Assembly: GCA_016845225.1 (NCBI GenBank)
Contig: JAERTB010000005.1
Span: forward strand, 9,644-73,643
DNA length: 64,000 nt
Source: Candidatus Woesearchaeota archaeon
GTDB taxonomy: Archaea; Nanobdellota; Nanobdellia; SCGC-AAA011-G17; UBA489
Direction: 5' to 3'
Shown: in pieces, positions 22,906 through 62,397 of the stretch
How positions within the stretch are numbered: position 1 is the first letter of the stretch
Layout: each line of letters opens with the position of its first letter
Made by a program: the position numbers and the translations under genes
The notes under the pieces: model-generated
What the model was told of the DNA's origin: nothing
The model's database searches: none
Seen by the model: only the letters and a program-made list of their open reading frames with translations

Positions 22906-22964
22906 GCTTTGCATGTTTATTAACCCTATTTATGTGCAATTTGAAGCCCTGCACATTTATTAAA
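22906..22964. repeat. Left-terminal array of 3 copies of a ~17-bp TTAAT-N-ATGTGCA(A/G) motif (orientation rev, fwd, rev)
   Basis: gctttgcatgtttattaa / ctatttatgtgcaa / cctgcacatttattaa. Inverted relative to the array at 31946-32008. Overlaps the transposase 3' end. Confidence 0.5.
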
Positions 22965-24044
22965 ATCAATGTTTATGCCCAATTCAAACATCTCCTGCAC
23001 CAAAACACACATATTATGTGCAAGACATTTAGCTAAAATCTCATTATCTTGGCCTATTTCACTTTTAGATCTCAAACTTTTCCCAAATTTCATCTTAAGC
23101 ATATGAAAAACAGTCTCAGAATTACTTCTTTTATGGTAATGATTCATAAATTCTTCTCGATTATATCTAAAATAGTCCCACATGGCCCTCCATATGCCTG
23201 TTCCCTTCGGATTGCCTCTAGTATTGCTCTTAAAAGGAATAAAAGGCACTCCTCCACAGTCTGAGACTGCCTGAAGGTTTTTTCTTGATAGATATGCTTT
23301 ATCTGCAGAAACTTCTCTAATATCATAAATTTTTGAAGTGGTTTTTGTTAAATTTTCAAATTCTGGACTATCACCAGAAAAACCTCTTGTTGTATTCACA
23401 GCAGCGATTATATTTGTTTTAACTCCACAGGTCATATGACACTTCCTAAATCTTCTTTTTTCAGTTTCTCTTCCTTTATCAAAACGAATATCAAACCACC
23501 TATCAAATTGGGATGTAGAGAAGCCAGAACTATCTGTAGCGAAGTCAATTTCTACTTCTGCTAAAGGGATTCCAGAAACATTTATGATATGTTGTAAATA
23601 GGTTTTATTTTCAGGTTTTCCTAAACATTTTAACACTGTATTGAAATGAGGGGTTTTTTCTACAAATCCTAATTGTCTACAAATTTCAATATCTGAAATA
23701 CATCTTCTAGAACTTTTTTGATTATAAGATTGAACAACCATATAGAATATTTGATCTCTAGTTGGAATACTTTTTCTTCCTCTTTGAGTTTTATTTTCAG
23801 GAAACTCCATATTGTTCAGTAAATCATTAAGAAAAGAGAAACAAAGAATTTTTTCCTTCATTTGAGCATTGTTGTATGCTGTCCAATCCTGAGTACATTT
23901 TTTAGGTCCTGTTGATTTAGATTTTTTTAATAAAAATTCATCTAAGAGTTTCTGCCTAGAGTAAGGTTGAAGCTTATTAGATCTAAGGATATGTTCTGTT
24001 AGTTTTTCTAACTCTTCTGATAGTTCAATTTCATCATTTTTCAT
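22926..24044 (-). CDS. DDE transposase, IS4/IS5 superfamily
   Basis: 372 aa. C-terminal block RSNSETVFHMLKMKFG resembling the YREK motif. Sits at the end of the flanked segment. Confidence 0.7.
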   Translation of the reverse strand: MKNDEIELSEELEKLTEHILRSNKLQPYSRQKLLDEFLLKKSKSTGPKKCTQDWTAYNNAQMKEKILCFSFLNDLLNNMEFPENKTQRGRKSIPTRDQIFYMVVQSYNQKSSRRCISDIEICRQLGFVEKTPHFNTVLKCLGKPENKTYLQHIINVSGIPLAEVEIDFATDSSGFSTSQFDRWFDIRFDKGRETEKRRFRKCHMTCGVKTNIIAAVNTTRGFSGDSPEFENLTKTTSKIYDIREVSADKAYLSRKNLQAVSDCGGVPFIPFKSNTRGNPKGTGIWRAMWDYFRYNREEFMNHYHKRSNSETVFHMLKMKFGKSLRSKSEIGQDNEILAKCLAHNMCVLVQEMFELGINIDFNKCAGLQIAHK

Positions 24045-24208
24045 GTTATTTAGGTACCTAATAGGTTATTTAAATCTTTCGGTACCTAATGATAAGTACG
24101 ATAAGTGATGAAAATCAAAGTATTTCGCAAACTTTACGAAGTATTTAAGGCAAAACTTATAAATTAAAGTAGTTACTACAAAATAATAGTTAAACTATAT
24201 AGAATAAA

Positions 24209-25573
24209 ATGGAAAATCAAGAAAAATCTGTTGGAGCCATTGTCTATAAAGAAGATTCTGAAGGATTAAAATTCCTTATTTTAAATAGATCTGATAAAAA
24301 AGAAGATTTTTGGGAGTATCCTAAAGGTCACCAAGAAAAAAATGAAACTGATGAATGTACATTAAATAGAGAAATTAGAGAAGAATTAGGAATTAAAACA
24401 TTTAAGATAATAGATGGGTACAAACAAACTATCTCCTATGTTTCAAATAGTAGCGGAAAAATAAGAAAATTGGTTTATTATTTGCTTTCTTCAGATGATG
24501 AGATAATTTTATCTAAAGAACATTCAGATTTAAAATGGATCAGTTTAGAAAATGCAAAATCTTTTTTTGAGTATCATGACATGGTTGAATTATTAGAAGA
24601 CGCAAAAAAATATATACAGAATAAAAAAACAAAAATCAAAATTAGCTCAAAAATCAATATAGTCGTTCCTTGTAGGAATGTGGCCAAGACAATAACTAAA
24701 ACAGTAGATTCTGTAATTTCCCAAGTAGATAATACAAATGGAAAATTGGTCTTGGTAGAAAATGATTCTGAAGACAACACTCAAGAAGTACTTGAAAAAA
24801 TCTCAAAAAAATCTCAAAACATAATTTTGAAAAAATCTCAAAGAGGAAAAATAAATGCTCTTCTAAAAGGGTTCGAGGAATTTGATAGTTTTGAACCAAT
24901 TTTTTGTATAGATGGAGACTCTTGGGCAAAGTATAGAAATTTCTCATTAGCACTTCAAGAATTTCAAAAACATCCAGAATTAAAAATAGTTGGGGGCGTG
25001 CCAAAAATTGAAGAATTTGAAATAAAAGATTCTTTAATGTCGGCAAATCTTTCAGGAATTTATCCAAGATCCAAAAAAGTTACAGATAACAAATGCAGTT
25101 TTAACAAAGCCTTTGAAGATCCGCAAGATAACTTACCACCAGAAATAGAGATTAATTTAAAACCTTTCTTCCATGGAAGACTTTTCTGTTTGAGAAATAA
25201 ATCTGTAGTTCCAAACAAATCATTAAACTGCAACTTACCTGATGACGTTTATTGGAACAGATACATCTTTAATAAATATGGCGAAAATTCAATAAGAATA
25301 CTACAAAAATTACAAGTGTATTATGAACCTTTTAAATCGATGAAAGAGTTGATTAGTTATTGTAAAAGAATTAAAGTTCAAGTGAATAAATTACTGAAGA
25401 TTTTTCCAGAATATTCCTCTCTAAAAAAAGCATTTGAAATATATAGAGACCAAGGATATGTAAAAACATTAAGCAAAAAAGCGCAGGAAGCATTCAAAAA
25501 AGAAGAATCATTTTTCTTAAATAACAAGGAATCTGAAAAAAGTTCTTGGCACGGAGAGAAATATGACCATTAG
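24209..25573 (+). CDS. NUDIX hydrolase fused to family-2 glycosyltransferase domain
   Basis: 454 aa. Nudix box GHQEKNETDECTLNREIREELGI at N-terminus. GT2-like IVVPCRN...DS core in the C-terminal half. Confidence 0.7.
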   Translation: MENQEKSVGAIVYKEDSEGLKFLILNRSDKKEDFWEYPKGHQEKNETDECTLNREIREELGIKTFKIIDGYKQTISYVSNSSGKIRKLVYYLLSSDDEIILSKEHSDLKWISLENAKSFFEYHDMVELLEDAKKYIQNKKTKIKISSKINIVVPCRNVAKTITKTVDSVISQVDNTNGKLVLVENDSEDNTQEVLEKISKKSQNIILKKSQRGKINALLKGFEEFDSFEPIFCIDGDSWAKYRNFSLALQEFQKHPELKIVGGVPKIEEFEIKDSLMSANLSGIYPRSKKVTDNKCSFNKAFEDPQDNLPPEIEINLKPFFHGRLFCLRNKSVVPNKSLNCNLPDDVYWNRYIFNKYGENSIRILQKLQVYYEPFKSMKELISYCKRIKVQVNKLLKIFPEYSSLKKAFEIYRDQGYVKTLSKKAQEAFKKEESFFLNNKESEKSSWHGEKYDH

Positions 25574-26477
25574 ATCAAAATTAGAATGTAAATCCAATGA
25601 TTATACTAATTTAGAACCCTTTGAAAATGATTCTCCAATAAAATCATCAATATTAATTCCAGCATATAATGAAGAAGGGTATCTAAAAAATACTATTAAA
25701 GCTATAAATAACGCAATAGAGTATTCCAATAATCCTAATTTTTTTGAATTGATCATAGTTGATGATGGTTCTAAAAAAGATTTAACAACTATTTTAGAAA
25801 ATGAAGAAATATGTTGTAAAAAGGTTTTCCACCGCTTTCAAAAAAATAGAGGAAGATCTCTTGCAAGAAACAAAGCAATTGAATTATCTTCAAATGAATT
25901 AATCTTTTTCTTTGACAGTGATGTGCTGATTCAAAATAATTATTTTAATGAACACTGGAAGATTCATAATAAAACAAGAAATGCAATTGCAGTCGGTTTA
26001 GCGGAAAATATCTATGGGGGAGATAGAAGGATAAATAGATTTCTATCAGAAAATGCTCCAACACCAGATATTAAAAAAGATTTTAGAATTTATAAAGATA
26101 TAAGTAAATGGGCAGACGAAAACAGTAGAAAAGAATTTCATCTACTGAATGAAACAAACAATTTTAAGCATTGGGGGAATAATAAAAAAATAGATTTTTG
26201 GACATTGCCTTATATGGTGGTTTCACATAATATGAGTGTTTTATCAGAAAATGTTGAAGAAGTAAATGGTTTTGATGAAAGATTTAAGGGATGGGGTTGT
26301 GAAGATAGTTTCTTTGGTGCAAAGTTGATTTCTTCAGGAGGTTATGTAATCCCTGTTTTAAATTCTTCTGCATATAGGATAAAACACCCTCCAAGAGAAG
26401 GAGATGAAAATCAACGTAAAAAAGAGATGATGAATAATATGGATCTTTATGAGCTCTTGTTGGATGAAAAATGTTAG
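25563..26477 (+). CDS. Family-2 glycosyltransferase
   Basis: 304 aa. SILIPAYNEEGYL, IIVDDGS and DSD motifs. Start overlaps the upstream gene by 11 nt. Confidence 0.75.
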   Translation: MTIRSKLECKSNDYTNLEPFENDSPIKSSILIPAYNEEGYLKNTIKAINNAIEYSNNPNFFELIIVDDGSKKDLTTILENEEICCKKVFHRFQKNRGRSLARNKAIELSSNELIFFFDSDVLIQNNYFNEHWKIHNKTRNAIAVGLAENIYGGDRRINRFLSENAPTPDIKKDFRIYKDISKWADENSRKEFHLLNETNNFKHWGNNKKIDFWTLPYMVVSHNMSVLSENVEEVNGFDERFKGWGCEDSFFGAKLISSGGYVIPVLNSSAYRIKHPPREGDENQRKKEMMNNMDLYELLLDEKC

Positions 26478-27289
26478 AAGCAATATTAAAAAAAGAAAAT
26501 TATGAATTAGTTAATCAAGAGTTTTTAGGAAAAAGAAATTCTGTATTTAAAATTAATAATGGAAATAATTTTGCAATTTTAAAAATCTATCAAAATAAAT
26601 ATTTTCCTAATCAAAGAGAATATGAAGCGAATATCTTAGGAAATCTTTCAGGAAATATTGTCTTTCCTAAGATAATAAAATCAGACAAGGAAGGAGGACT
26701 AAATTACAACATTTTAACATTGATAGAGGGTAAAACATTATACGTTGAAAAGCAAGAGAATTATACTTCTTTGGTGGGAAATTATCTAAATTATCTGCAT
26801 AAACTAAAACCTGCAATATGTTCTAGAAAATTGGAAAATGATGAAAATAAAATTATGAAAAAAGCTTTTGCAAAAATAAATGATAAAAGCCTAGAGAATC
26901 TTTTTGAAAAGCAAGATATGAAGGGTAACAAGTCATTCATACATCATGATCCCCATTTCAGACACACGATAATATCTCAAGAAGGGATTGTCGGGATGAT
27001 AGATTGGGAAGATGCAAGATATGGTCATTTAGAAACAGATTACGCCTCATTTATTAAAGATCAAATAGAGACAGATTGTCCAATTTCAGAAATTTATGAA
27101 TTTTCTAAAAATTATAAGGAAAAACCAGAAAATCTATTGAAACATTTAGCTAAAATTTATTTAATCGATTTAGCATTTAAGGAAGGAATTCTTAATAAAT
27201 CTGACGCAAAAACAAAAGAAGTTATTAAAGTAATGCTTTCTAATGATTCTTTTGAAAAAACAATTGAGAGGATTTATGATGATTATTAA
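26471..27289 (+). CDS. Aminoglycoside/choline-kinase-like phosphotransferase (APH fold)
   Basis: 272 aa. Catalytic loop IHHDPHFRHTI and GMIDWEDARYG (D..W.D). Overlaps the upstream gene by 7 nt. Confidence 0.65.
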   Translation: MLEAILKKENYELVNQEFLGKRNSVFKINNGNNFAILKIYQNKYFPNQREYEANILGNLSGNIVFPKIIKSDKEGGLNYNILTLIEGKTLYVEKQENYTSLVGNYLNYLHKLKPAICSRKLENDENKIMKKAFAKINDKSLENLFEKQDMKGNKSFIHHDPHFRHTIISQEGIVGMIDWEDARYGHLETDYASFIKDQIETDCPISEIYEFSKNYKEKPENLLKHLAKIYLIDLAFKEGILNKSDAKTKEVIKVMLSNDSFEKTIERIYDDY

Positions 27290-28376
27290 TGTAACTGGTA
27301 AGAAAGGAAGTGGAAAAACAACTGCACTAAATTACTTTAATAATTTAGGATTTTCAACAGTAGAGTTATATGGCAAATTTCACGAACTTTTGAAAAATGG
27401 TAAATTAACAGAAAAAGAAAAAGAAGCTATAAACAAATGGGATGACTCCCAAATAAATGTGTTAAATGAACACTTATTAAAAAATTATAAAAAAAATATT
27501 ATATTTCTTGGAGGATTACTCAGAACAGAAGAATTAGATTTTTTGAAAAAAAATGATGAAGTTATAACTCTCAACATTGAAACTTCAAAAGATATTTCAA
27601 GATATGGCCGGCTTCTAAAAAGAGCTAGAAATTCAGAAGGAAATTACAGTTATGGGGATTTTTTAAGAAGAGATAAAAATCGTAATGGTGAAACAAAAGG
27701 ATATCATGAAAATAATTTATTGAAAATAATTGATCAATCTGATTTGATTGTTAAGAATAATCATTCCGTGCAGGATTTTGAAAAAGAGCTAGAGAAAGGA
27801 TTAATTAAGATTGGAGCAATATTACAAGAAGGCAAACCATGGTATGAAACTTCAAATAAATATGGCTCATTAAAAAATCAAATACTTTTTGCTATTGAAT
27901 CATTGATTGGAAAGAGAAAGGATGTTTTAGAAAGCATTGAAGATTTAGAAAGTGTAGTTTCCCTTGGTTGTGGATTAGGTACAGAGTTAGATTCAACACC
28001 CGCCAAAAGAAAATTAGGGATAGATTTATTACCTGAAACTTGGTTCAAAAACAGAGATTTTGAATACAAGAATGCAGATTACAAAAATACCTCAAATGCT
28101 GCAGACTTAGTTACACTTCTTAGAACAAATACCACTATCAGAAAAAATTCAAAAAAAGGGATAGAAAAAGGGATATCTCTTGCAAATGAATATTTTATTA
28201 TGAGTTTTGCAACTGCAGGGATAATGTATGATGGTTCAATAAAAAAATTCAAAAAAGCTTCCGATGGAAATTCTTTGGAGGGCCTATTTTCAGAAGTAAG
28301 AGAAGAATTAAACTTATACGGTGAAGTAAATGAAAAAATCACTCCTTTTGAGCATTATTTTATATTAAGGAAGTAA
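27243..28376 (+). CDS. P-loop kinase-like protein with unknown C-terminal domain
   Basis: 377 aa. N-terminal Walker A INVTGKKGSGKTT resembling dephospho-CoA/nucleoside kinases. Overlaps the upstream gene by 47 nt. Confidence 0.5.
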   Translation: MILLKKQLRGFMMIINVTGKKGSGKTTALNYFNNLGFSTVELYGKFHELLKNGKLTEKEKEAINKWDDSQINVLNEHLLKNYKKNIIFLGGLLRTEELDFLKKNDEVITLNIETSKDISRYGRLLKRARNSEGNYSYGDFLRRDKNRNGETKGYHENNLLKIIDQSDLIVKNNHSVQDFEKELEKGLIKIGAILQEGKPWYETSNKYGSLKNQILFAIESLIGKRKDVLESIEDLESVVSLGCGLGTELDSTPAKRKLGIDLLPETWFKNRDFEYKNADYKNTSNAADLVTLLRTNTTIRKNSKKGIEKGISLANEYFIMSFATAGIMYDGSIKKFKKASDGNSLEGLFSEVREELNLYGEVNEKITPFEHYFILRK

Positions 28377-28474: not shown

Positions 28475-28636
28475 ATGAAACTCCAAAAACAGCTTTCTAG
28501 AAAAGTTGGAGATAAGGATTATGCTAAGTGGGTTTTGGTAATTCCTCCGGAAATAATCAAGGAAGCATGTCTAAAAGAAGGTCAAGAGTTAAAGATCAAA
28601 GTAAAAGATAATAAACTAATAATTGAGAAAGAATAA
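28475..28636 (+). CDS. AbrB/MazE-type swapped-hairpin small DNA-binding protein (antitoxin-like)
   Basis: Hand-translated 53 aa (MKLQKQLSRKVGDKDYAKWVLVIPPEIIKEACLKEGQELKIKVKDNKLIIEKE). Pattern matches SpoVT/AbrB domain. Missed by the ORF track. Confidence 0.55.
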   Translation: MKLQKQLSRKVGDKDYAKWVLVIPPEIIKEACLKEGQELKIKVKDNKLIIEKE

Positions 28637-28922: not shown

Positions 28923-29591
28923 ATGGCAAAAAAAGATAATATCCAGATAAAGAAAAAATATTTAATAATTATTGGAATCGTTATGTTATTTGTTATTTTA
29001 TTTTTTCTTAATCAAAAAGAAATCTCAGAAAATGATTATAAAAAAGAGGACTATAAACAAGTCACAGCCTCTTACAAAGAAAAATTTTTAGAAACAAGAG
29101 TTGACATTTGCGAATTAGATGAATTTGGTTTTATGAGTGTAACGGGGGTTGTGAAAAATAAAGGAAATCTTAGAGTAAATGAAATTGATGTAGGTGTTGA
29201 TTTTTATAATGGTGAGACTGCAATAGATTATTCTAAGACAGGTGTCTTAAACATTCCTTCAAATGAAGAGAGAGTATTTAACACATTAAGTACAAGCACT
29301 AATAAAATAACGGAATGTAGGGCAAGCATAGTTATTTATCCTTGGGAGTATGAAGAAGAGCAAGAACAAATCAAAATAGAAACAACTATCCCTCAAAAAA
29401 CAGAGATTAAAGAAAGCACATTGTCCTCAACAGAAAAACAAACAATTTGTAATGATATTCTTGCTTATTTTGATTGGTGTTATGACAATAGTGTTTCTGC
29501 AGAAGACTGTGGCAATCAGGCACATGAAAAAGTTTTACGTCTTTATGATATAACCAATTCACAATTACAGGAGGTATTAGCATATTGCTAA
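28923..29591 (+). CDS. Membrane-anchored extracytoplasmic hypothetical protein
   Basis: 222 aa. Single N-terminal TM helix, Cys-containing C-terminal region. Confidence 0.35.
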   Translation: MAKKDNIQIKKKYLIIIGIVMLFVILFFLNQKEISENDYKKEDYKQVTASYKEKFLETRVDICELDEFGFMSVTGVVKNKGNLRVNEIDVGVDFYNGETAIDYSKTGVLNIPSNEERVFNTLSTSTNKITECRASIVIYPWEYEEEQEQIKIETTIPQKTEIKESTLSSTEKQTICNDILAYFDWCYDNSVSAEDCGNQAHEKVLRLYDITNSQLQEVLAYC

Positions 29592-29963: not shown

Positions 29964-30040
29964 TTTTTCGCAAATTCTACGAAAATTTGTTAGAAAACAA
30001 TAAAAACATTAAAATAATATGTCTAATTAGAGGTTATAAT

Positions 30041-31030
30041 ATGAAAAAAGAGTTTAAAACAATTGATCTATTTGCAGGTGTTGGAGGAGTAAGATTAGCA
30101 TTCGAAAAAGCAGGTTTTTCAACAGTATTTGCAAACGATATAGATAAAAATTGTAAAAAAACTTACGACATAAATTTTAAAGATATTTATCTTCACGTAG
30201 AAGATATAAATAAACTAGATATTAATTCTATTCCAAAATTTGATATACTTCTCGGAGGTTTTCCTTGTCAGGCATTTAGTATTGCAGGATATAGGCAAGG
30301 ATTCAAAGATAAGAAAGGCAGAGGAAACTTATTTTTTAGAATTGCAGATATTCTTAAAGAAAGAAAACCTCAAGCAATACTTCTTGAAAATGTTAAGAAT
30401 TTGAAAGGACATGACAAGGGTAAGACTTTCAAAATAATTAAAGAAACTCTTGAAAAAGAATTAGGATACTACATTAGAACAGAAGTTCTAAACAGCATGA
30501 CACATGGTAACCTGCCACAAAATAGAGAAAGGATATTTATTGTAGGATTTTTAGATAAAAAGAAATGTGATGCGTTTGAGTTTCCTAAAAAAATAACTTT
30601 AACTAAAAAATGGAGCGAATTTGTGGAAAAAGAAGTAGATGATAAATATTACTACAACGACAAACCACTTTATAATAAAATTAAGAACGACATCAACTCA
30701 GAAGATAAAGTATATCAATGGCGTAGAAAATATGTTAGGGAAAATAAAAAAGGAGTTGTTCCAACACTAACCGCCAATATGGGCAGAGGAGGACATAATG
30801 TTCCAATAATAAAAACTGATAAAGGCATAAGGAAATTAACTCCAAAAGAATGTTTTTTAATCCAAGGATTCCCACAGTCTTTCATTCTTCCAAAAGATAT
30901 TTCAGATAGCGAGTTATACCATCAAGCAGGAAATAGCGTAACCATTCCGGTTATTCAAAGAATTGCAGAGAATATAAAATTAGTATTAGAAGAAAAAAGA
31001 ATAAGTGAACAAATCAAATTAAAAAATTAA
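30041..31030 (+). CDS. dcm: DNA (cytosine-5)-methyltransferase
   Basis: Motif I DLFAGVGG, motif IV GFPCQAFSIAG, motif VI ENVKNL, C-terminal QAGNSV. Start at internal ATG preceded by AGG. Confidence 0.9.
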   Translation: MKKEFKTIDLFAGVGGVRLAFEKAGFSTVFANDIDKNCKKTYDINFKDIYLHVEDINKLDINSIPKFDILLGGFPCQAFSIAGYRQGFKDKKGRGNLFFRIADILKERKPQAILLENVKNLKGHDKGKTFKIIKETLEKELGYYIRTEVLNSMTHGNLPQNRERIFIVGFLDKKKCDAFEFPKKITLTKKWSEFVEKEVDDKYYYNDKPLYNKIKNDINSEDKVYQWRRKYVRENKKGVVPTLTANMGRGGHNVPIIKTDKGIRKLTPKECFLIQGFPQSFILPKDISDSELYHQAGNSVTIPVIQRIAENIKLVLEEKRISEQIKLKN

Positions 31031-31863
31031 AGTTTTTTAAGAAAATCTTTCCAGTCTTTATCACTATTTTTCAATTTAGAAACAGATTTAACATATCTGT
31101 GCCCATCAAACTTTTGTCCAGGTATTTCTGTAACCTTTTCCAAATCATCAAAATATGAAATACCACATATCCAAATAGGGATTTTGTTTAATTTTTTAAT
31201 AGTTTTAAAACCATCATTTTTTTCTAAATACTCTCTAACCTTTCCAAAAAAAGAGTGTTCTCTCAAAATTCTAAATAAATGGTCTGATGGAAGGCCAACT
31301 CTTGCAAAAATATAAACATCACTTTTTCTCTCAACTCTTTCAACTTCATTGGATCCCAATACCAAATATGCGTTTTTCATTTTACTTGCTTTAACTCCAA
31401 CACCTAATTTAGGGTAGACAAATTTCCCCTTTTTTTTGATTCTATGAAAGTCTTGAGGGGTTATTTCTTCAGTATGCACCTCTTCGTCCAATTCTATATT
31501 TGTAGAAAATTTTTCGTTTAGGAATTTTTTTATTGCATGTTCCGCAAGAATCCCCAAAATAACATCGTCAGCTGCCTGGACCTCCGTTCTTTTTCCACGA
31601 ATTCCATGCAATGCAAGTCCTCCATAGACCATTTTTATTGCGAACTCAAAGCATTTTTCATATTCTTTCATTGAAAGATAAATTGTTCTACTTTCTTTCA
31701 AGTTTTTCCAATTGTCTAAATCAGATTTTTTGAACTTCCACCTATTTTTTTCCTTAAATGCAGAAATTTCTTCACTATTCTTAAAATAATTTTCAAATTC
31801 TTTTTTATCAATACCAAGATAATCCAATGCTTCTTTTGAGTTAAAAATCCCTTTTTTCAACAT
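31027..31863 (-). CDS. Putative Type II restriction endonuclease cognate to the Dcm methyltransferase
   Basis: 278 aa, no family match by eye. Convergent and 4-nt overlapped with the methyltransferase. Call is positional. Confidence 0.45.
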   Translation of the reverse strand: MLKKGIFNSKEALDYLGIDKKEFENYFKNSEEISAFKEKNRWKFKKSDLDNWKNLKESRTIYLSMKEYEKCFEFAIKMVYGGLALHGIRGKRTEVQAADDVILGILAEHAIKKFLNEKFSTNIELDEEVHTEEITPQDFHRIKKKGKFVYPKLGVGVKASKMKNAYLVLGSNEVERVERKSDVYIFARVGLPSDHLFRILREHSFFGKVREYLEKNDGFKTIKKLNKIPIWICGISYFDDLEKVTEIPGQKFDGHRYVKSVSKLKNSDKDWKDFLKKL

Positions 31864-34285: not shown

Positions 34286-35572
34286 TTAATTGGTTTTTAT
34301 TACATCTGAGAATTTCTTTGTTTTAGTTTTCTTCTTTTTACCTGATAAGATAAATACTAATATTGCTATCACTAGTAGCGGAAGTATAATTGCAACTATT
34401 GGAGCTGCATTCTCTTGTGCTTCTTCTTGATATTCCCCCGCTAAATCCCAAGGAATTACGTCTTTTACTGGAGATTCTGTTTCTGTTGTTTGTTCTGTCT
34501 CTGTGATGGTTACTTCTTGTTCAGGAAATAATTCTGTTTCAATTTTTTCTTCTATTATTACCTTAATATTTAATGTGGAAGAATATTCTTCATTGTAAAT
34601 TATTAAATCTCCAGAGTAATAATCTAGTGTAGGTGTTTTATCTTTATTTATTGAAATATAAATTGAAAAGTTTGAAAGAGGTCGGATTGAATTAATTGAA
34701 GTTTGTTGTAATGAGATTATTTGGTTTAGATTTCCTGTTAGTTTTATGTTTAAGTTGTTTAATGTGGTGTCTAATTTATTGTACATGTAAAGATTCCCTT
34801 CTTCTGAATCTTCTTTGTGGATTTGTTTAATTAATTTAGAACCTTCAATTCTAAACCCTATTGGGTCTTTTAGATATTCTTTAGTTTGAGTTGATTGATT
34901 TGATTCTTCTTGAGTTATTTGTTCTTCTACTAATATGGGAATTGTGTATTCTTTTGAATTAGAAATAAATTTTATTTCTGAAGTAAGTGCATTTGTAGTG
35001 TCGTAAGAAAATGTGAATGTTCTTGGAATGTTGGAAGTTAACGTTTGTTCAGTGATATATGGGTGTGCGACATATTCTGGTACCTGAAAGCTTATGGGTT
35101 CATCTGTTTGAGATTTTACAGTTATTTGAATTTGACCCTGTTTATCTAAGTTTAAATAGAAAAATCCAGGAGTGATTGCTATTGACGGTTGAGAATTTAA
35201 TATTGATATTGTTTCTTCTTGAGTTATTTGTTGTAAAACATTATTGATTAGAAATGATTGATCTTCTATTTTTAAAGTATGATCTCCGTCTTGAATTGTT
35301 TGAGAAATTTCAAAGTATAAAAAATAATGATTTGGAGAAATTTCTTTTAGAAATGGTGCTAATGGTTGTAATGTATTTTTTGAAGAATAAAGTTTGATAT
35401 CTTGGGGTTTTAGAGGATTTATTGGATTCTTTAAAATTATTTCTGTTTGGTAAACTTCTCCTTGAGAAAGTTGGGAAGTTAAAGGCGTTAATTGGATTAA
35501 GTCGTCTGTTTGTGCGAAAACTAAATTACCTGAAATTGTAAAAAGAAAAAGAAAAACTAAGGTTTTCTTCAT
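34286..35572 (-). CDS. Secreted T/Q/N-rich surface protein with C-terminal TM anchor and lysine tail
   Basis: 428 aa. Signal peptide, low-complexity beta-rich body, TM plus KKKKTKTKK tail. Confidence 0.4.
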   Translation of the reverse strand: MKKTLVFLFLFTISGNLVFAQTDDLIQLTPLTSQLSQGEVYQTEIILKNPINPLKPQDIKLYSSKNTLQPLAPFLKEISPNHYFLYFEISQTIQDGDHTLKIEDQSFLINNVLQQITQEETISILNSQPSIAITPGFFYLNLDKQGQIQITVKSQTDEPISFQVPEYVAHPYITEQTLTSNIPRTFTFSYDTTNALTSEIKFISNSKEYTIPILVEEQITQEESNQSTQTKEYLKDPIGFRIEGSKLIKQIHKEDSEEGNLYMYNKLDTTLNNLNIKLTGNLNQIISLQQTSINSIRPLSNFSIYISINKDKTPTLDYYSGDLIIYNEEYSSTLNIKVIIEEKIETELFPEQEVTITETEQTTETESPVKDVIPWDLAGEYQEEAQENAAPIVAIILPLLVIAILVFILSGKKKKTKTKKFSDVIKTN

Positions 35573-37386
35573 TTTCCACCAAGAAGTTTTCTTGCTTCAC
35601 TTAAAGATTTTTCAAGTTCTCTTTCTGCTGAAGATTTACCTTTTTTTGGAGGGGCTCTTCTTGCTTGGAATTTTGGTTGTGGAGAACCAAATCCTCCCGT
35701 TGGACCTTTTGGTTTGAATACTGGGGCGTTCCCAAATGTTCTTTTTGGTTTTGGTTTCTTATTAAAATAACTCTTGAATGCAATAAATGCTGCAATTCCA
35801 ACAAATAATATGATTAAGAATAATAGGAAAATTGTTCCGAATCCACTTTTTTCTTTTTGAGGTGCTAAGGACTCACATTCACAGTTGTAATTACAAATTT
35901 CTCCAGATAAACATGCGGAATCATCATAACCATCGCATTCTTCTCCAGCTTCTTGAATATCATTTCCACAATACGCTGAAGCTGTAGTTTCTCCACAATC
36001 TAGAGAACATGAAGATTCTTCTGAAGGTTGACATACATTGTCTCCACAGAAACAGTCATTAGGGCAATTTTGGTTTGTTTCACCAAAACTATAATCACAA
36101 ACACCGTCTTCAATACAAAGATCCTTGGTCGTGGTTTCACAATCAGAAGGGCAAGAATATTCATTTTCTGTTAAAGGATTACAGATATCATCTCCGCAAA
36201 TACTTTCATCTGAACTATCGTCTCCTGGAGGCGTTAATGTTTCTGGTAAATCTACAGAAGCGCCTGCAAACGCAGTGTAAAGAATTAGGGCGGTAGTCGC
36301 TTCATCTGCATCCCATGCACCTTCTTGATTTACTGAAGATTCTAAATAATCTATTGCTAATGTAATTTCTTCTGTTGATGCCGATGCAATTAAGCTCATT
36401 AACGCCATGCCTGTTTCAAAATTATTTTTGTTAAAGCTCCCATCTAATCTTTGTATGTCTAATAATTCTTGTAAGTATTTTGTTTTTTTACTTGGATCTG
36501 TTGTTGATAGATAAAGTAAAGAAGTGTCTACTGGTTTTAATGAATCATATGTGTCTAGTAAGTAAAGGTTTGTGTTTATTTCTGAATTTTTATTTGTTAA
36601 TACCCAGTTAGCCCATAATGAAGTATCTTTGTGGCATGTTGCTCCTTGTTTATGGCACGCATTAGGAATTTGTGTTTTGTATTTAGAAGTAGTTGCTTGT
36701 TCAGTTACATAATATGAAGAACCTGAATTGTAAATTATTGAGATTGTTGTTCCTTCTCCAATTGAAGAACAATCGATTGTTAGTTCAATTAAAGGATTGT
36801 TATCAATTAAATTATTTCCTGCAACACATCTGTTTAAATCAAAGAACGTTGGAGGTTGACCTGCAGTACATCCAGGGAATGTACCTTCATCAACTTGAAT
36901 GTCTACTTGTTCTAAAGTTTCTCCAGCAGGATATGCAATTGTACAAGTTTTATCTTGTGCTGAAGTGATGATTTCTAACCACCAGTTTCCTGCTAAACCA
37001 GTTCCTAATTCTGATTCAATGTAAGATTCTATTTCTGAAGTGTCTTCACCATAGTTGGATAATGCCCAGTATGCAATTGCAGTATCTTTAATGTTACAGT
37101 TTCCTTTTGGAAAACATGCTACTGTGTCCTTTTTTTCTGATTGAATATATTTTATTGCTTGCATACCATATGAATTACCGTAACCTGCAAGTTTCATAGC
37201 CATTGCGTAAAAAGAAGTTGCAAAAATACTATCATCACAGTTTCCGCCCTGACAGTGTTCAATCAACCACTCATAACTTGAGGTTGGATCAAAGTCTTCT
37301 GGTTCTTCTTCTGCTAATGTAAATGGGGTTAATAGAGATAGAATTAATATTGATGTTAATATGATTGCTAACTGTTTTTGCTTCAT
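35569..37386 (-). CDS. Secreted surface protein: alpha/alpha-toroid (prenyltransferase/terpene-cyclase-like) repeats plus Cys-rich modules, C-terminal TM
   Basis: 605 aa. Repeats such as SFYAMAMKLAGYG and AIAYWALSNYGED. About 30 Cys in CxxC/EGF-like spacing. C-terminal TM and basic tail. Confidence 0.4.
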   Translation of the reverse strand: MKQKQLAIILTSILILSLLTPFTLAEEEPEDFDPTSSYEWLIEHCQGGNCDDSIFATSFYAMAMKLAGYGNSYGMQAIKYIQSEKKDTVACFPKGNCNIKDTAIAYWALSNYGEDTSEIESYIESELGTGLAGNWWLEIITSAQDKTCTIAYPAGETLEQVDIQVDEGTFPGCTAGQPPTFFDLNRCVAGNNLIDNNPLIELTIDCSSIGEGTTISIIYNSGSSYYVTEQATTSKYKTQIPNACHKQGATCHKDTSLWANWVLTNKNSEINTNLYLLDTYDSLKPVDTSLLYLSTTDPSKKTKYLQELLDIQRLDGSFNKNNFETGMALMSLIASASTEEITLAIDYLESSVNQEGAWDADEATTALILYTAFAGASVDLPETLTPPGDDSSDESICGDDICNPLTENEYSCPSDCETTTKDLCIEDGVCDYSFGETNQNCPNDCFCGDNVCQPSEESSCSLDCGETTASAYCGNDIQEAGEECDGYDDSACLSGEICNYNCECESLAPQKEKSGFGTIFLLFLIILFVGIAAFIAFKSYFNKKPKPKRTFGNAPVFKPKGPTGGFGSPQPKFQARRAPPKKGKSSAERELEKSLSEARKLLGGK

Positions 37387-39981: not shown

Positions 39982-42009
39982 TTATGGTAATAGCATTACA
40001 GGCACTGCCGGTGCAATTGAGTATATTTCTGAGTTTATTTCTAAATCTTCTTCTGAAGAAGTTACAAATGAGAAATATACGGTTTTTCCTATGTAATTCT
40101 GATTGTTTGGGATTGTCCAAGTTACTGTACTTGTCCCATTCAAGTTTAATTGAGATTGAGCATTTGAAAATCCATAATTAGTTGAATTTGACAACATATT
40201 TTTGAATATTTGATTATATTCTAAAGGAATTTCTCTCCTATCTGGCAAGGTTAATGGAGGAGTCATACTATCAGACATAAGTAAAGTATAATTTTTATTT
40301 GGATTTAAATGATCTGTCAAAGAAATATTTATTGTTGTTCCAATTTGTACTAAATTGTTTACAGTTATATTTGCTTGTGAATTTTCTTCAATGTTCAGGC
40401 TAGTTTCTACTTGATTGTTGGTTTCATTTAGTTCATAAATTGAATTGTTTGGATCTATGTTTACTTTTACCAGATATTCTTCAAATTTAGGAAATATGTG
40501 ATTAATTACTGCAGTATAATTCTCTCCAGGAGAAATATTTGCAATGTTTATTCCTGCACCTTTTCCATCACCAAACTCGATTCTCCCTTCAATGTTTTCT
40601 GCAAAAATTGTTCCTTGGTTTTCAATATTGTAAACAAAAGAAAACTTTCTAGGATTTATTGGATCTTGTTTCTTAAAAATTAAAACTGGAGATAAATCAG
40701 GAGTGCCATTTACAAAGATAGTCATTGTTCCTTTGTTGTTTGATTCATTTGATTCTTGAATAAGGTCTTGAGGATCCAATTCAAAATAAAATGTGTAATA
40801 TCCTCCTAAATCATAAGTGTGATTAATTAAAATGTTTAAACTTTCCCCCGCATTAAGATTTCTTGAGTTACTTCCATTTGGATAATCAAAATTATATTTC
40901 CATTCAAAGGTACTTACTGGACCACTTCCCAAATTTGCTATTGTGATGTTTGCAGTTACAGTCTCTCCGATTTCTACATAGTTAGGTAGGTAAGTCATAT
41001 CTAAAATTTTTAAATCTGGTAAACTTTGATTTGAATAAGTTTCTATAGTATTAAAATTGTAATTTGGAGAAGGATCTGCATATTTATTTAACCTTACTTC
41101 GTAAACATAAATATCAGTACTGTGGTTTGGGCCTAATCCAAAGAAAACACTTTCTGTACCTTGTGTATTTGAAGTTCCTTGCCAATTAAATTTATCGTTT
41201 CCATTTTGAATTGTTAAATTATTTCTTGTTGAATTCCAAAGAAATGTGGAATCTACTATTGCCCCATTCATGTTTACGCCTATATTCTGGCTAGCTATTC
41301 CCCCTTTATCAGAAGTAATCCATAATGCATCTGCCCCTGCATTTGCATGATTCATCCAATGGAAATATCCCCCAGTAGAATCTGATTGTGAATCTGCAAA
41401 TCCAAATGAATGATAATCTCCGTCATTATTTCTAACTTTTTTTGTTCTCATCCATAAATCTAAATTATCTGCTTGATCAAATTTCTTTATTGACTTTAGA
41501 TAGGAAGTTCCATGTAATGCGTAAGCATAACCATTTGTTTCTACCCAATCCGAAGTATTTGTCCAAATTGATGAATCAATTATACCATCTTCAAAATCAT
41601 CTGCTAAAATGAATGAGGATTTTAGATCACTTGTTGATTGGACTGATTCATTTCCAAAATATAAATACAGTTTAGCATGACCGTTAGGATCTAATTTCGG
41701 AAGTTTTACCCAGACTTCTGCAGAAATGTTGTTGCTAGATTCTACCCAATACGGGATTGTCTGAGTTCCATCAATATTTGTAAATCTTATATCTTCAAAA
41801 TTTTCTTGCATATTTGATTCATAAGGAATTGTTAACTGGAGAGAATAGTCTGAAAGATTGTTTCCAGAGAGTTCTTGAACATCTAACAATCTTCTGTTTT
41901 GCCAATTAGGATCCCACCAATTTGATGCAGAAACAATACTAGAAGTTAATATAATGATAAATAAAGAAAGGATTAGAAATTTTGAAAGTTTTTTTGTTGT
42001 GTTTTGCAT
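39982..42009 (-). CDS. Large secreted surface protein (DUF2341-like N-terminal W..W..R motif, CARDB-like Ig domains)
   Basis: 675 aa. Signal peptide, WWDPNWQNRRLL, LamG-like middle, repeated Ig-like segments with NxT/S sequons. Confidence 0.4.
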   Translation of the reverse strand: MQNTTKKLSKFLILSLFIIILTSSIVSASNWWDPNWQNRRLLDVQELSGNNLSDYSLQLTIPYESNMQENFEDIRFTNIDGTQTIPYWVESSNNISAEVWVKLPKLDPNGHAKLYLYFGNESVQSTSDLKSSFILADDFEDGIIDSSIWTNTSDWVETNGYAYALHGTSYLKSIKKFDQADNLDLWMRTKKVRNNDGDYHSFGFADSQSDSTGGYFHWMNHANAGADALWITSDKGGIASQNIGVNMNGAIVDSTFLWNSTRNNLTIQNGNDKFNWQGTSNTQGTESVFFGLGPNHSTDIYVYEVRLNKYADPSPNYNFNTIETYSNQSLPDLKILDMTYLPNYVEIGETVTANITIANLGSGPVSTFEWKYNFDYPNGSNSRNLNAGESLNILINHTYDLGGYYTFYFELDPQDLIQESNESNNKGTMTIFVNGTPDLSPVLIFKKQDPINPRKFSFVYNIENQGTIFAENIEGRIEFGDGKGAGINIANISPGENYTAVINHIFPKFEEYLVKVNIDPNNSIYELNETNNQVETSLNIEENSQANITVNNLVQIGTTINISLTDHLNPNKNYTLLMSDSMTPPLTLPDRREIPLEYNQIFKNMLSNSTNYGFSNAQSQLNLNGTSTVTWTIPNNQNYIGKTVYFSFVTSSEEDLEINSEIYSIAPAVPVMLLP

Positions 42010-58411: not shown

Positions 58412-58488
58412 TTGTTACTATGACAATGATTTTATTTTTAATTGTTTTTATTAGTAAAGTTTAATAATAGAAATTCTTAAATTAAATT

Positions 58489-58818
58489 ATGACTGAAGTT
58501 AATTTTGAAGATTGGATGAAGCTAGATTTAAGAGTTGGAAAAATCTTAGAGGCGGAATTACATCCTGATGCAGATAAGCTTTATGTAATAAAAGTAGATA
58601 TTGGAGAAGAAACTCCTAGAACAATTGTTTCTGGATTAAGGGACCATTATGAGCTTGAAGAATTAAAAGATAAAAAGATAATTGTTTTTGCAAATTTAAA
58701 ACCTGCAAAATTAAGAGGCATCATGAGTGAAGGAATGTTGCTTGCTGCAGGAAAAGACGATAAGTGTGTTTTATTGGATCTAGAAAAAGATATTGAAGTA
58801 GGATCTAAAATTAGTTAA
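58489..58818 (+). CDS. tRNA-binding domain protein (Trbp111/CsaA/EMAP-II-like OB fold)
   Basis: 109 aa. DLRVGKILEAELHPDADKLYVIKVDIGEE...IVSGL matches the MetRS C-terminal tRNA-binding arm. Confidence 0.8.
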   Translation: MTEVNFEDWMKLDLRVGKILEAELHPDADKLYVIKVDIGEETPRTIVSGLRDHYELEELKDKKIIVFANLKPAKLRGIMSEGMLLAAGKDDKCVLLDLEKDIEVGSKIS

Positions 58819-59429
58819 TCTTCTTCGTCATTTAACATTAATGAGAAACCAATTACTTTATTTTTTCTTACTATGAAATCTAATCCCATTTCTTCATATC
58901 TTAGTAATCTAATTATTAATGCAGAATCTTTCTTAATTGGCATGAATAATGTATCTTCGGGAATTCCAAACTTTTGATACAATTCTGATTTTGAATAAAT
59001 TTTAGCAGTTTCACCAACTAGTTTTTCATTGAAAGGTGTTCTTATTGTGATTGATCTTATAATTCCATTATCTAGAGAAATAATTATTCCTGCCTCATCT
59101 AATCCCAGGGATGTTGAATATTCCCAACTTGAAACTCCTCCGGAGAAATCTGTTTGAAGGTCTGGATTCCCTAATTTTTCTAATAATTTTTTAGTTCTAT
59201 CTCCTACTGAAATGCCCATTACAGAAACATTATTTGCATTAAACGATTCTAATGAAAATATATCAAATTCAGTAACTTCATATTTGTCTACTATAGTTTC
59301 TTCTACAGATTTCATACTATTAAAAATAGAAAATATAGAAAATATTAGTGCCAGTAGAATTAAAGTTACTGCTACTTTGTTCTTTTCTTTTTTAATCTTT
59401 TTCGTGAATTTTTTTATGAATTTTTTCAT
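58815..59429 (-). CDS. Membrane-anchored hypothetical protein
   Basis: Start placed at MKKFIKK, because the upstream ORF extension runs through tRNA-Ile. Lysine-rich N-terminus plus TM. Confidence 0.35.
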   Translation of the reverse strand: MKKFIKKFTKKIKKEKNKVAVTLILLALIFSIFSIFNSMKSVEETIVDKYEVTEFDIFSLESFNANNVSVMGISVGDRTKKLLEKLGNPDLQTDFSGGVSSWEYSTSLGLDEAGIIISLDNGIIRSITIRTPFNEKLVGETAKIYSKSELYQKFGIPEDTLFMPIKKDSALIIRLLRYEEMGLDFIVRKNKVIGFSLMLNDEED

Positions 59430-59440
59430 TTTATTGCAAG

Positions 59441-59515
59441 TGAGCCCGAACGGATTTGAACCGTCGACCTCTCGATTATCAGTCGAGTGCTCCAACCAGA
59501 CTAAGCTACGGGCTC
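59441..59515 (-). tRNA. tRNA-Ile (anticodon GAT)
   Basis: Manual fold. Acceptor GAGCCCG/CGGGCTC, anticodon stem CTCGA/TCGAG with loop CTGATAA, T-arm GACGG-TTCAAAT-CCGTT. 75 nt. Confidence 0.9.
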
Positions 59516-59581
59516 TTAACAATTAATAAGTTTTGAATCGATTTATAAGATTTTCTAGCGTCTAAATTATTGATTAATATG

Positions 59582-59654
59582 CGTCCCGGGAAGGATTTGA
59601 ACCTTCGACCTCACGGTTAACAGCCGTGTGCTCTAACCACTGAGCTACCGAGAC
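59582..59654 (-). tRNA. tRNA-Asn (anticodon GTT)
   Basis: Manual fold. Acceptor GTCTCGG/CCGGGAC, D-arm GCTC-AGTGGTTA-GAGC, anticodon loop CTGTTAA, T-arm GAAGG-TTCAAAT-CCTTC. 73 nt. Confidence 0.9.
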
Positions 59655-59854
59655 AATAGTAAAAGATTCAAATTAGTTTGTTTAAAAGATTTTCCACAAG
59701 ACTTATATCTTTTCTAGGGCATTAAATAATCGTGATAGGGATGATATTTGGAGGAATTTTTGGGGTTGTTCCTGAAAATTTTGGAAGTTTTCAGATTTTG
59801 TTTGGATTTTTGATTTTATTATTTGGTTTGCTTATTAATTCTTGGAAAAATTAA

Positions 59855-60766
59855 TTATCTGGATAGGATAAACCAAATTCCCAAAATAATTACTACTACT
59901 GCTAAAAAGCCGAATACAATATTTTTTGCTGCATCTTCATTTGAAAAAAATTCTTGAAAAAAACCTAACTCCTCAGGTGATTTTTCTTTGACTGGTCCAG
60001 GTAAAGGAATTATTTCTTCTTTTGTTTCAGATTTACAACAGCAGGATTTATCTCCAGCACAATATCTTAATCCTTTATTGACTTCTCCTGGCTCACAAAT
60101 GTTTACATTCGGGTTAGTAGGAATTTCCCTACAAAAAGATGCGACATATCCTTCTTCATTGCAGATATCGTTGCAAGTTTTTTTATTGCAATCTGGAAAA
60201 CAGATAAATGATTCTCCTGGCTCACAAATACCATCTCCACAAACAAATTCATTTTCTTCTTTTGCTTTATCAATTGTTAATTCTGCAGAAGTTAAGGTTT
60301 CTCCGGAGATTACAATAAATGAATAATCTTTTAATTCTTGATAATCTGGATAATCTCTCAAGATTATTCCTGCCCTTCTTCTATCGTTTGGATTTGTTCC
60401 AGTAATAATTAAATTATTTCCATCAACTTTTACAATTGCTTGATTTTCCTCATAAGGCCATTCTTCGCAAGGATAACCAAATACGGATTCCAAATAAACA
60501 CTTCCACAATACGGTCCGACGTAAATTTTTGGAAGAGAATCGCTGATTTCTCCATCCAAAACTGTTTGAATCTCTAATTCATTGTGTTTTTGTAAACCTA
60601 GAACGATGTCTGTTGCCGCAGCAGTATCCCCTCCAACTGCTTCCTCTGCAAGTACAAGATAATAATATTGATCTACATCTTCTAAAGTTTCTGAAATAGA
60701 TTTTTCTGCTGAAACAAGTTGAGAAACTAGGAATACTGCCAGAAATAAAATTAATAACTTTTTCAT
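59855..60766 (-). CDS. Secreted Cys-rich surface protein with C-terminal TM anchor
   Basis: 303 aa. Signal peptide. C-terminal third has more than 20 Cys (CGDGICEPGESFICFPDCNKKTCNDICNEEGY...). Terminal TM. Confidence 0.4.
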   Translation of the reverse strand: MKKLLILFLAVFLVSQLVSAEKSISETLEDVDQYYYLVLAEEAVGGDTAAATDIVLGLQKHNELEIQTVLDGEISDSLPKIYVGPYCGSVYLESVFGYPCEEWPYEENQAIVKVDGNNLIITGTNPNDRRRAGIILRDYPDYQELKDYSFIVISGETLTSAELTIDKAKEENEFVCGDGICEPGESFICFPDCNKKTCNDICNEEGYVASFCREIPTNPNVNICEPGEVNKGLRYCAGDKSCCCKSETKEEIIPLPGPVKEKSPEELGFFQEFFSNEDAAKNIVFGFLAVVVIILGIWFILSR

Positions 60767-60767
60767 T

Positions 60768-61760: not shown

Positions 61761-61810
61761 AATCTAAATTTGAATAATAAGTATTTAAGTTTTATTAAGT
61801 TCTAGCCATT

Positions 61811-62338
61811 TTATGGCTTTTTCCAAGCAATTTCATAATAAGTTACATCGTCTTCATTATCTACAATTGCCATAAGAAGATTCTTTCTTGTTGAGTGCGA
61901 TACTCTATTTTTTGCTGAAAAGTCATGCCAAGTTAATGTATTTGACTCGTGTACTGGAAAAACAATCCATTTTGCATGGTCTTCCCCAGGCTTTATTCCC
62001 TTATCATATACTCTGAAGTCTGCACCAAATTTAAGTGCTGTTTTTACAATGTATCCTCTGGATCTTAAATCCTTGAATACTGCGTACCTTATCCAAAATT
62101 TTTTATCTATTCTTCTTGACTTTTTTATGAATTCTTCAGCAGATAGCTCTTTTTTTCCTGAAAAAACTTTTAGTTTATTAGATTCTAGCAAGTATAGTGC
62201 TTCTTGAAGAGAATATTTGAATTTGCCAGATTTTAATTCTCCAACCCTAGTTTTATCATAAAGATTTCTTGAAGTAGGATTATCTAATACTGTAATTCCT
62301 TCTTCTGCGAATATCCCTTCTAATTTAGCCCTTACCAT
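61811..62338 (-). CDS. endA: tRNA-splicing endonuclease EndA
   Basis: 175 aa. C-terminal catalytic domain GYIVKTALKFGADFRVY...H...K. Confidence 0.8.
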   Translation of the reverse strand: MVRAKLEGIFAEEGITVLDNPTSRNLYDKTRVGELKSGKFKYSLQEALYLLESNKLKVFSGKKELSAEEFIKKSRRIDKKFWIRYAVFKDLRSRGYIVKTALKFGADFRVYDKGIKPGEDHAKWIVFPVHESNTLTWHDFSAKNRVSHSTRKNLLMAIVDNEDDVTYYEIAWKKP

Positions 62339-62397
62339 ACTCTCTTTAAAAAAGAACTATTTATAAAAGCGTTTGGGTAATGAGATTTATGGTAAAA

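Follow-up and report, generated by a model that had tools for sequence, protein, structure and literature searches.

The question raised by this locus is what four tightly packed genes of a Candidatus Woesearchaeota archaeon accomplish together. The genes, referred to here as g1 to g4, are open reading frames (ORFs) that follow one another in the same direction on the forward strand at positions 24209-28376 of the window, which is the whole 64,000-nucleotide (nt) stretch of contig JAERTB010000005.1 that was analysed and whose numbering is used throughout. Among them they encode a module of six domains: a Nudix hydrolase, two family 2 glycosyltransferases (GT2a and GT2b), a kinase of the aminoglycoside phosphotransferase (APH) fold, a P-loop kinase, and a methyltransferase-fold domain. 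The original prediction, made from the sequence of the window, offered two directions, namely that the genes make or modify a phosphorylated glycoconjugate or nucleotide derivative, and that they serve in anti-phage defence or DNA hypermodification. The first of these remains the best reading. To judge from the gene neighbourhoods of relatives, the set is a real, rare, and conserved unit, and we put at about one half the probability that the module is a conserved archaeal pathway of soluble enzymes that would assemble and tailor a small glycoside from nucleotide sugars.

The genes overlap by 11 nt (g1/g2), 7 nt (g2/g3), and 11 nt (g3/g4), the last value applying to a g4 start at 27279, where the protein opens with the residues MIINVTG. 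Overlaps of 7-47 nt had been claimed; the tight overlaps of 7-11 nt stand, but the 47-nt overlap requires an upstream ATG at 27243, which is the wrong start of g4 because all orthologues and the public gene call begin at MIINVTG. In diverged relatives these genes recur with overlaps of a similar style (4-35 nt), which argues that the arrangement is not due to chance. The proposal of a tightly coupled four-gene operon with the domains named above agrees with both the Pfam matches and the overlaps, the kinase in g4 being recognised from its Walker A motif. The description of g4 as a P-loop kinase holds for its N-terminal half, but it missed the methyltransferase fold of the C-terminal half. In the hydrophobicity of the four proteins, no segment compatible with a membrane helix was found in any of g1 to g4.

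Relatives of the module are designated here by locus (L) and protein (P) numbers assigned to database entries. The fusion of a Nudix domain to a GT2 had been called unusual, and among 5.8 billion proteins it is indeed confined to two clusters at 90% identity, that of g1 and one other (P0002, 49% identity). The contigs that encode P0002 (L001 and L002) contain all four genes in the same order, with identities of 48, 59, 33, and 44% for g1 to g4, respectively. A further group of loci (L005-L012), which carry the g4 homologue P0009 and include a 74.6-kb contig of the metagenome-assembled genome (MAG) GCA_964572035.1, labelled in its record as a Methanosarcinales archaeon, has five overlapping genes, encoding a Nudix protein of 134 amino acids (aa), a GT2a of 310 aa, GT2b, the APH-fold kinase, and the kinase-methyltransferase protein. 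Since Nudix and GT2a are separate, adjacent, and overlapping genes in L005, the fusion in the window can be viewed as two neighbouring genes that were joined. In L021 the order is GT2a, APH-fold kinase, P-loop kinase, Nudix, and GT2b, with a dTMP-kinase-like (Tmk-like) protein and a BpsA_C-family (PF01861) protein in addition, and the Nudix gene is the sixth of seven co-directional module genes; in L028 the order is GT2b, APH-fold kinase, P-loop kinase, and Nudix, the last on the opposite strand; and in L017 a Nudix and a P-loop kinase gene are followed by a GNAT gene. The original prediction held that a failure of the genes to co-occur outside this genome would speak against it, but the set is found in at least four other lineages, all archaeal, where its orthologous parts show the same fusion as here in one case, occupy five separate genes in another, and stand in a different order in two more. 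Co-occurrence in other archaeal lineages has been borne out, but the adjacency to defence genes that was to be checked along with it is not conserved.

Within the module, the Nudix and P-loop domains form what is apparently the older and more widespread pair. The Nudix gene is adjacent to a relative of the P-loop kinase in all nine loci inspected, five of which have the set of APH-fold kinase and glycosyltransferases and three a set of sugar-nucleotide type. A second operon is built on the same core (L029, L035, and L036, see the table), again with overlapping genes; L036 is a short contig that contains the first three genes only, and L029 adds a sugar-phosphate nucleotidyltransferase (PF00483) in front, with a phosphoribosyl pyrophosphate (PRPP) synthase gene nearby. 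From its domains, this second operon looks like an uncharacterised sugar-nucleotide or nucleotide-salvage pathway. The components are tied together by two independent fusions, Nudix with GT2a and kinase with methyltransferase, and a linkage that survives reordering, a change of strand, and these fusions argues for a functional connection rather than hitchhiking. Scans of JGI metagenomes with the kinase alignments yielded a single 1-kb contig, and no relevant literature was found on Nudix proteins with glycosyltransferases and DPANN, on UPF0200, or on nucleotide-activated oligosaccharides.

The N-terminal half of g1 is a Nudix domain of the NUDT2 type, and is thus predicted to resemble the asymmetric diadenosine tetraphosphate (Ap4A) hydrolases. 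Its Nudix box (aa 40-62, nt 24326-24394 in translation) reads G40-x5-E46-x7-R54-E55-I-x-E58-E59-x-G61-I62, in agreement with the canonical GX5EX7REUXEEXGU, and is invariant in 5-8 orthologues. A profile of five module Nudix sequences matched human NUDT2 (Protein Data Bank (PDB) entry 3u53) over its full length with an E value of 4.7e-23, and the likeness to the Ap4A hydrolase structures 3u53 and 1xsa extends to the W-x-x-PKGH positions and to the aromatic residue that follows the box by about 15-17 aa, Tyr77 of g1 aligning with the Tyr of the NUDT2 motif NYV. Orthologues in L001, L005, L017, and L021 are 40-49% identical to this half, and a relative with 81% identity carries the source annotation K01518. 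What distinguishes the g1 domain from NUDT2 and its bacterial and archaeal homologues is its fusion to a glycosyltransferase within a multi-enzyme operon.

The remainder of g1 and the whole of g2 are glycosyltransferases in which PF00535 scores above its gathering threshold and the DxD motif is invariant; in GT2a, this and the other motifs are unchanged in an alignment of four orthologues. The closest solved relative of g2 is the E. coli K4 chondroitin synthase (PDB 2z86; E 1.2e-15 over aa 29-285), and g2 shares with this polymerase and other Glyco_transf_7C GT2s the DxD and GWGxED motifs, but it is a single-domain protein of 304 aa where the polymerase has two domains. Orthologues of g2 are 60% (L001), 50% (L005), 40% (L028), and 32% (L021) identical.

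For g3, alignment identifies the active-site residues K38, E52, H158-x-D160, H165, and D178 (within IDWED). A profile of four orthologues matched APH(2'')-Id with E 1e-7, choline kinase with 7e-3, and macrolide 2'-phosphotransferase with 0.01, and g3 is, on the strength of the first of these matches, closest to enzymes that phosphorylate sugar hydroxyls. With APH(2'')-Id and the choline kinases, its best profile matches, it shares the Lys-Glu pair, the catalytic HxD, and the metal-binding Asp; it differs from them in its very low identity, in the invariant H165, which stands where the catalytic loop (HxDxxxxN) normally has an Asn, and in that one orthologue lacks the catalytic Asp. A role for g3 in antibiotic resistance is unlikely, given the operon context.

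The N-terminal domain of g4 has the fold of a P-loop nucleoside monophosphate (NMP) kinase, with the Walker A sequence GKKGSGKT and an arginine-rich LID region (R108, R111, R115, R117), although its sole Pfam match, to AAA_18, reaches 24.6 bits and stays under the cut-off of 29.4. The nearest known systems are the Sulfolobus AdkA-like kinase (3lw7), CoaE, and UMP kinase, from which g4 differs in falling under both Pfam and NCBIfam cut-offs, in being always paired with a Nudix gene, and in its fusion to an orphan domain with the class I fold of S-adenosylmethionine (SAM)-dependent methyltransferases. This C-terminal domain has the seven strands of the Rossmann-like fold, together with a glycine-rich motif I and an acidic residue where strand 2 ends. 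The residues expected at its SAM site, G230-C-x-x-G234-x-E236, D249 (the strand 2 residue), and D267, are invariant in the three full-length g4 proteins known. A profile search of 1.84 billion representative proteins recovered the full-length kinase-methyltransferase architecture in three clusters only; the other matches reach the kinase domain alone, and the same search found no sequence relatives of the methyltransferase-fold domain outside the module. Two candidates were considered and rejected: the BpsA_C-family protein of L021 is not taken as the counterpart of the methyltransferase domain, to which it shows no homology in hhalign, and the N-terminal extensions of about 140 aa in remoter P-loop homologues are not Nudix domains.

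The conservation of the unit, the intact DxD motifs of both glycosyltransferases, the relation of GT2b to chondroitin synthase, the position of APH(2'') as nearest relative of g3, the NUDT2 match, and the lack of transmembrane segments together point to the synthesis of a small tailored glycoside. In such a pathway GT2a and GT2b, as DxD-containing inverting enzymes of the GT-A fold, would attach two sugars, one after the other, to an acceptor that is either soluble or located at the membrane surface. The APH(2'')/choline-kinase-like g3 would phosphorylate a sugar hydroxyl, either on the product glycoside or on a free sugar bound for activation, and the SAM-methyltransferase-fold domain would methylate the product. 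The pair composed of the Nudix domain and the NMP-kinase/CoaE-like P-loop domain would handle the nucleotide or sugar-phosphate side, by converting a nucleoside diphosphate conjugate (NDP-X) or a dinucleoside polyphosphate to an NMP that is then re-phosphorylated. We infer the order of these steps, the donors and the acceptor, and the role and substrates of each kinase.

Several observations weigh against this scheme. All NCBIfam matches of g1 to g4 fall far below the equivalog cut-offs, and no nucleotidyltransferase, flippase, polyprenyl-phosphate transferase, or oligosaccharyltransferase was found in or near any locus of the glycosyltransferase type. The Nudix domain belongs to the Ap4A-hydrolase-type subfamily, which is not the kind known for nucleotide sugars, and it apparently works independently of the module, since it stands alone among housekeeping genes in a close relative. 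The L001 orthologue of g3 has a His at the position of the catalytic Asp. Finally, the AlphaFold2 (AF2) model of g1 is too poor in the glycosyltransferase half (predicted local distance difference test (pLDDT) 65, predicted template modelling score (pTM) 0.38) to show the acceptor site or the packing of the domains. The features of the locus, of its surroundings, and of the second operon are collected in the table.

Table. Features of the module, of its neighbourhood in the window, and of the second operon at other loci (domain roles are predictions; positions in the window unless a locus is named)
Feature	Position	Strand	Details
Probable promoter with short leader, upstream of g1	24117..24208	+	conserved; TATA-like TTATAAAT, two AAGTATTT repeats
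g1 ORF	24209-25573	+	454 aa
g1 N-terminal domain, predicted NUDT2-type (asymmetric Ap4A-hydrolase-like) Nudix	24209..24628	+	Pfam NUDIX aa 6-120, 49.8 bits, above gathering score
g1 C-terminal domain, predicted soluble GT2 of GT-A fold (GT2a)	24629..25573	+	Pfam Glycos_transf_2 aa 151-290, 63.7 bits, above gathering score; DxD D235-G-D237
g2 ORF	25563-26477	+	304 aa
g2, second predicted soluble GT2 (GT2b) with Glyco_transf_7C-type C-terminal region	25563..26477	+	Glycos_transf_2 81.1 bits and Glyco_transf_7C 32 bits, both above gathering score; DxD D118-S-D120; GWGxED 243-248
g3 ORF	26471-27289	+	272 aa
g3, predicted small APH/choline-kinase-fold kinase	26471..27289	+	Pfam APH 61.9 bits, above gathering score
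g4 ORF	27279-28376 (alternative upstream ATG 27243)	+	365 aa from 27279
g4 N-terminal domain, predicted NMP-kinase/dephospho-CoA-kinase-like P-loop kinase	27279..27836	+	Walker A aa 7-14 (nt 27297-27320)
g4 C-terminal domain, class I SAM-dependent methyltransferase fold	27837..28376	+	orphan at the sequence level
IS4-type DDE transposase, directly upstream of the operon	22926-24044	-	
AbrB/MazE-type ORF just after g4	28475-28636	+	53 aa, below usual ORF length filters; PF04014 28.5 bits, above cut-off
Basic ORF	28623/28638-28919	+	93-98 aa; no family match
Protein with strong N-terminal hydrophobic anchor	28923-29591	+	222 aa; KD19 2.5; several cysteines in C-terminal part; no family match
C5 cytosine methyltransferase	29987-31030	+	Pfam 296 bits; PADLOC MTase_II
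Predicted restriction-enzyme-like protein	31027-31863	-	278 aa; N-terminal HTH_17; weak REase_II match 1.3e-10
Second operon on the Nudix/P-loop core: (NTP_transferase) - Nudix - P-loop - His_Phos_1 - AAA_28 kinase - LbH	L029 5848-9256; L035 676-3388; L036 783-2242		

Among the alternative accounts, the one that survives best is that of an ordinary surface-glycan cluster of the agl or eps type, which we nevertheless regard as unlikely. Under this account the GT2s would be peripheral enzymes working on an oligosaccharide linked to dolichol, which would subsequently be flipped and passed on to surface proteins, the methyltransferase and kinase would tailor the glycan, and the Nudix enzyme would trim the nucleotide-sugar pool, as the Nudix enzyme GDP-mannose mannosyl hydrolase (Gmm/WcaH) does in the colanic acid cluster. 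Several GT2s together with a tailoring SAM-methyltransferase are indeed typical of archaeal agl clusters and are also seen in bacterial exopolysaccharide clusters, that of colanic acid having a Nudix enzyme besides. Dolichol-phosphate mannose synthase is the top solved match of GT2a (1e-11), and GtrB and ArnC are among its other matches, but the profile covers only the generic nucleotide-binding half of this synthase, as it does in GalT1 and the heparosan/chondroitin synthases; g2 matches AglG, though weakly (32.7 bits against an NCBIfam cut-off of 440); and large surface proteins are encoded near the module in L005 and, in the window, at 39982-42009. What the module lacks, in contrast to such clusters, is the membrane side of the process and the genes for nucleotide-sugar synthesis: g1 to g4 contain neither a transmembrane nor an interface segment, and the window, L005, and L021 have no flippase, AglB, oligosaccharyltransferase, or dolichyl-phosphate (Dol-P) transferase within some 10 kb of the module. 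Its Nudix domain is moreover of the Ap4A-hydrolase and not the Gmm type, two kinases are integral to it, and the NCBIfam equivalog cut-offs are all missed by far. Glycan clusters also usually vary among relatives, whereas here a fixed set is kept down to about 30% identity.

It is somewhat less probable that the product is based on a nucleotide, either a nucleotide or cofactor-like compound that bears glycosyl, phosphate, and methyl groups or modified ends of RNA or tRNA, in which the Nudix and NMP-kinase-like enzymes share a scaffold that the glycosyltransferases and the methyltransferase decorate. Both members of the invariant core, a NUDT2-like Nudix and a kinase of AMP-binding type, are nucleotide-handling enzymes, and members of the NUDT2 family are also active on RNA 5' ends. 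Matches to (d)CMP kinase and to the kinase domain of a dCTP-deaminase family were obtained with relatives of the P-loop domain, the additional protein in L021 resembles dTMP kinase, and all proteins are soluble. Genes for a tRNA synthetase and for RNA modification lie nearby in two loci, but this is a weak argument, as in small, gene-dense archaeal genomes chance alone is expected to place translation genes close by. Other results speak against a nucleotide or RNA product: no nucleic-acid-binding domain was detected, the g3 profile has no significant match to ArkI, the archaeal RNA kinase (E 0.38), and loci of the L029, L035, and L036 type point to sugar-nucleotide metabolism. More doubtful still is the specific version in which, in small-genome archaea, the Nudix/P-loop pair joins with both glycosyltransferases, g3, and the orphan methyltransferase domain to build a nucleotide-anchored product, be it a nucleotide or cofactor with glycosyl, phosphate, and methyl groups or RNA or DNA with a glycosyl modification; if it were true, the fusions would mark channelling between nucleotide cleavage and glycosyl transfer.

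A further scenario does without a shared pathway, and proposes that unrelated genes came to be co-transcribed behind a housekeeping Nudix gene whose strong, conserved promoter served as an expression platform. In favour of this proposal is a relative from Tara Oceans (L024), a scaffold that is syntenic with the window at 58480-63306 and has 56-73% protein identity there. Positions 24117-24629 of the window, which comprise 92 nt upstream of g1 and the entire Nudix domain, are 87% identical in DNA to L024 7908-8421, where a stand-alone Nudix gene, its protein 81% identical to the g1 half, is located between the S8e gene and a radical-SAM gene; the upstream stretch by itself is about 90% identical. 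The identity ends abruptly, exactly at the Nudix/GT2 junction, and at 87% in DNA against 56-73% in the proteins of syntenic neighbours the Nudix segment is far more alike than the rest of the genome. This pattern suggests that the Nudix cassette was recently exchanged or that a fusion or fission took place, and an exchange and a fission on the Tara side would both fit; the L001 orthologue is likewise a Nudix-GT2 fusion, and no homologue of g4 or GT2a was detected for the Tara relative in the databases searched. The conservation of the upstream region and its TATA-like elements indicate that it is probably a promoter, and it matches no Rfam family and has no strong RNA fold (folding z-score -1.6). 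As a single gene, this Nudix subfamily is, furthermore, widely distributed among archaea labelled Nanoarchaeia and some candidate-phyla bacteria, and it occurs without the other module genes in L024 and L026. Yet a mere expression platform would be hard to reconcile with an association that outlasts changes of order and strand, as in L021 and L028, with two different fusions that link the components, and with the constant presence of the P-loop gene beside Nudix; we therefore consider it quite improbable.

This returns us to the neighbourhood of the operon and to the idea of defence. The window is an AT-rich (31% GC) segment of archaeal chromosome with genes for Alba, class I LysRS, Hjc, Cdc6/Orc1, diphthamide synthase, and primase, as well as seven tRNAs. 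In this setting the operon stretch looks like a variable region, on account of its transposase and restriction-modification (R-M) neighbours and its lower GC content (26-30%, against a window mean of 31.5%). The type II R-M genes are convergent with a 4-nt overlap and are situated 1.6 kb downstream of the operon, with three small ORFs between, the first two of which may form a toxin-antitoxin-like pair, as far as their sequences indicate, while the third, which encodes the 222-aa protein, is not kept beside the module at other loci. The original prediction of a mobile segment was not upheld, as neither terminal inverted repeats of at least 14 nt at the transposase nor convincing direct repeats flanking the region were found. 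A palindromic TTTAGGTACCTAA motif is present at the 5' side of the transposase (24049-24062), with similar 10-mers at 24081 and 28433, and the operon is flanked on either side by a GGTACCTAA 9-10-mer, which is only marginally enriched. Farther away, at 34286-37386 on the reverse strand, two overlapping large ORFs (428 and 605 aa) without a Pfam match lie beside an MJ0538-family gene and the Hjc gene.

Elsewhere the module keeps different company. In L005, L006, and L007 it is found between a MiaB-like gene and genes for ArgRS, S17e, and Alba, and the Nudix/P-loop pair of L017 is beside NOG1 and FtsZ. The L001 copy may sit in a virus- or plasmid-derived context, as on its 6.5-kb contig it is preceded (135-2082) by six small co-directional ORFs without a Pfam match, the first of which matches phrog_27241 (unknown function, E 6e-18). 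The proximity to a transposase, a possible toxin-antitoxin pair, and an R-M pair is local to this genome.

The notion that the module is an anti-phage or DNA-hypermodification system on a mobile island, in which the Nudix enzyme depletes or converts deoxynucleoside triphosphates, the kinases regenerate a nucleotide in modified form, and DNA is decorated by the glycosyltransferases and methyltransferase with the R-M pair as a partner, is therefore largely refuted by the lack of a conserved context, and we consider it highly improbable: in its favour are the position between the transposase and the AbrB/MazE-like gene, unassigned ORFs, and R-M pair, a GC content about 2-4 points under the window mean, the PADLOC match of the Nudix domain, the small ORFs before the L001 copy, and a parts list (nucleotide pyrophosphatase, nucleotide kinases, glycosyltransferases) formally parallel to T4-type DNA glucosylation and thymidine hypermodification, but against it stand the housekeeping flanks of the other loci and of the stand-alone Nudix gene in the syntenic relative, the failure to find element boundaries, and the want of any DNA-binding domain. 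The PADLOC match is to a single-gene candidate, PDC-S07, and g2 to g4 match no model in PADLOC-DB. Viral relatives of the module were likewise not found: 2.9 million viral contigs of IMG/VR, searched with the g4, g2, and g3 alignments, gave generic GT2 matches of 23-25% identity, 50,697 phage genomes (INPHARED) gave nothing in a tblastn search with g4, and BFVD gave methyltransferase matches at the level of fold only. Nor is there a base-modifying enzyme, such as a thymidylate-synthase-like hydroxymethylase, in the window or at the L005 and L021 loci. By these comparisons the module is not a defence or hypermodification system, and that part of the original prediction has to be given up; its statement that the operon matches no named system stands, as neither a named system nor a family at equivalog level was matched.

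What is already familiar here are the enzyme classes, and uncharacterised glycosylation operons are common; what is new is the fixed composition of six domains, the recurrent Nudix/P-loop core, and the orphan methyltransferase domain fused to a kinase. A more general caution follows from the locus, namely that function should not be read from the defence-island neighbourhood of a single genome. The recurrent pairing of a Nudix enzyme with a P-loop kinase, which joins different sugar-nucleotide sets, offers a way to approach the function of two archaeal protein families that are very common but unassigned. Ultra-small archaea rely on surface chemistry and salvage, and if the module does make a defined phospho-methyl-glycoside, it would add a compact and portable pathway to their poorly known biochemistry.

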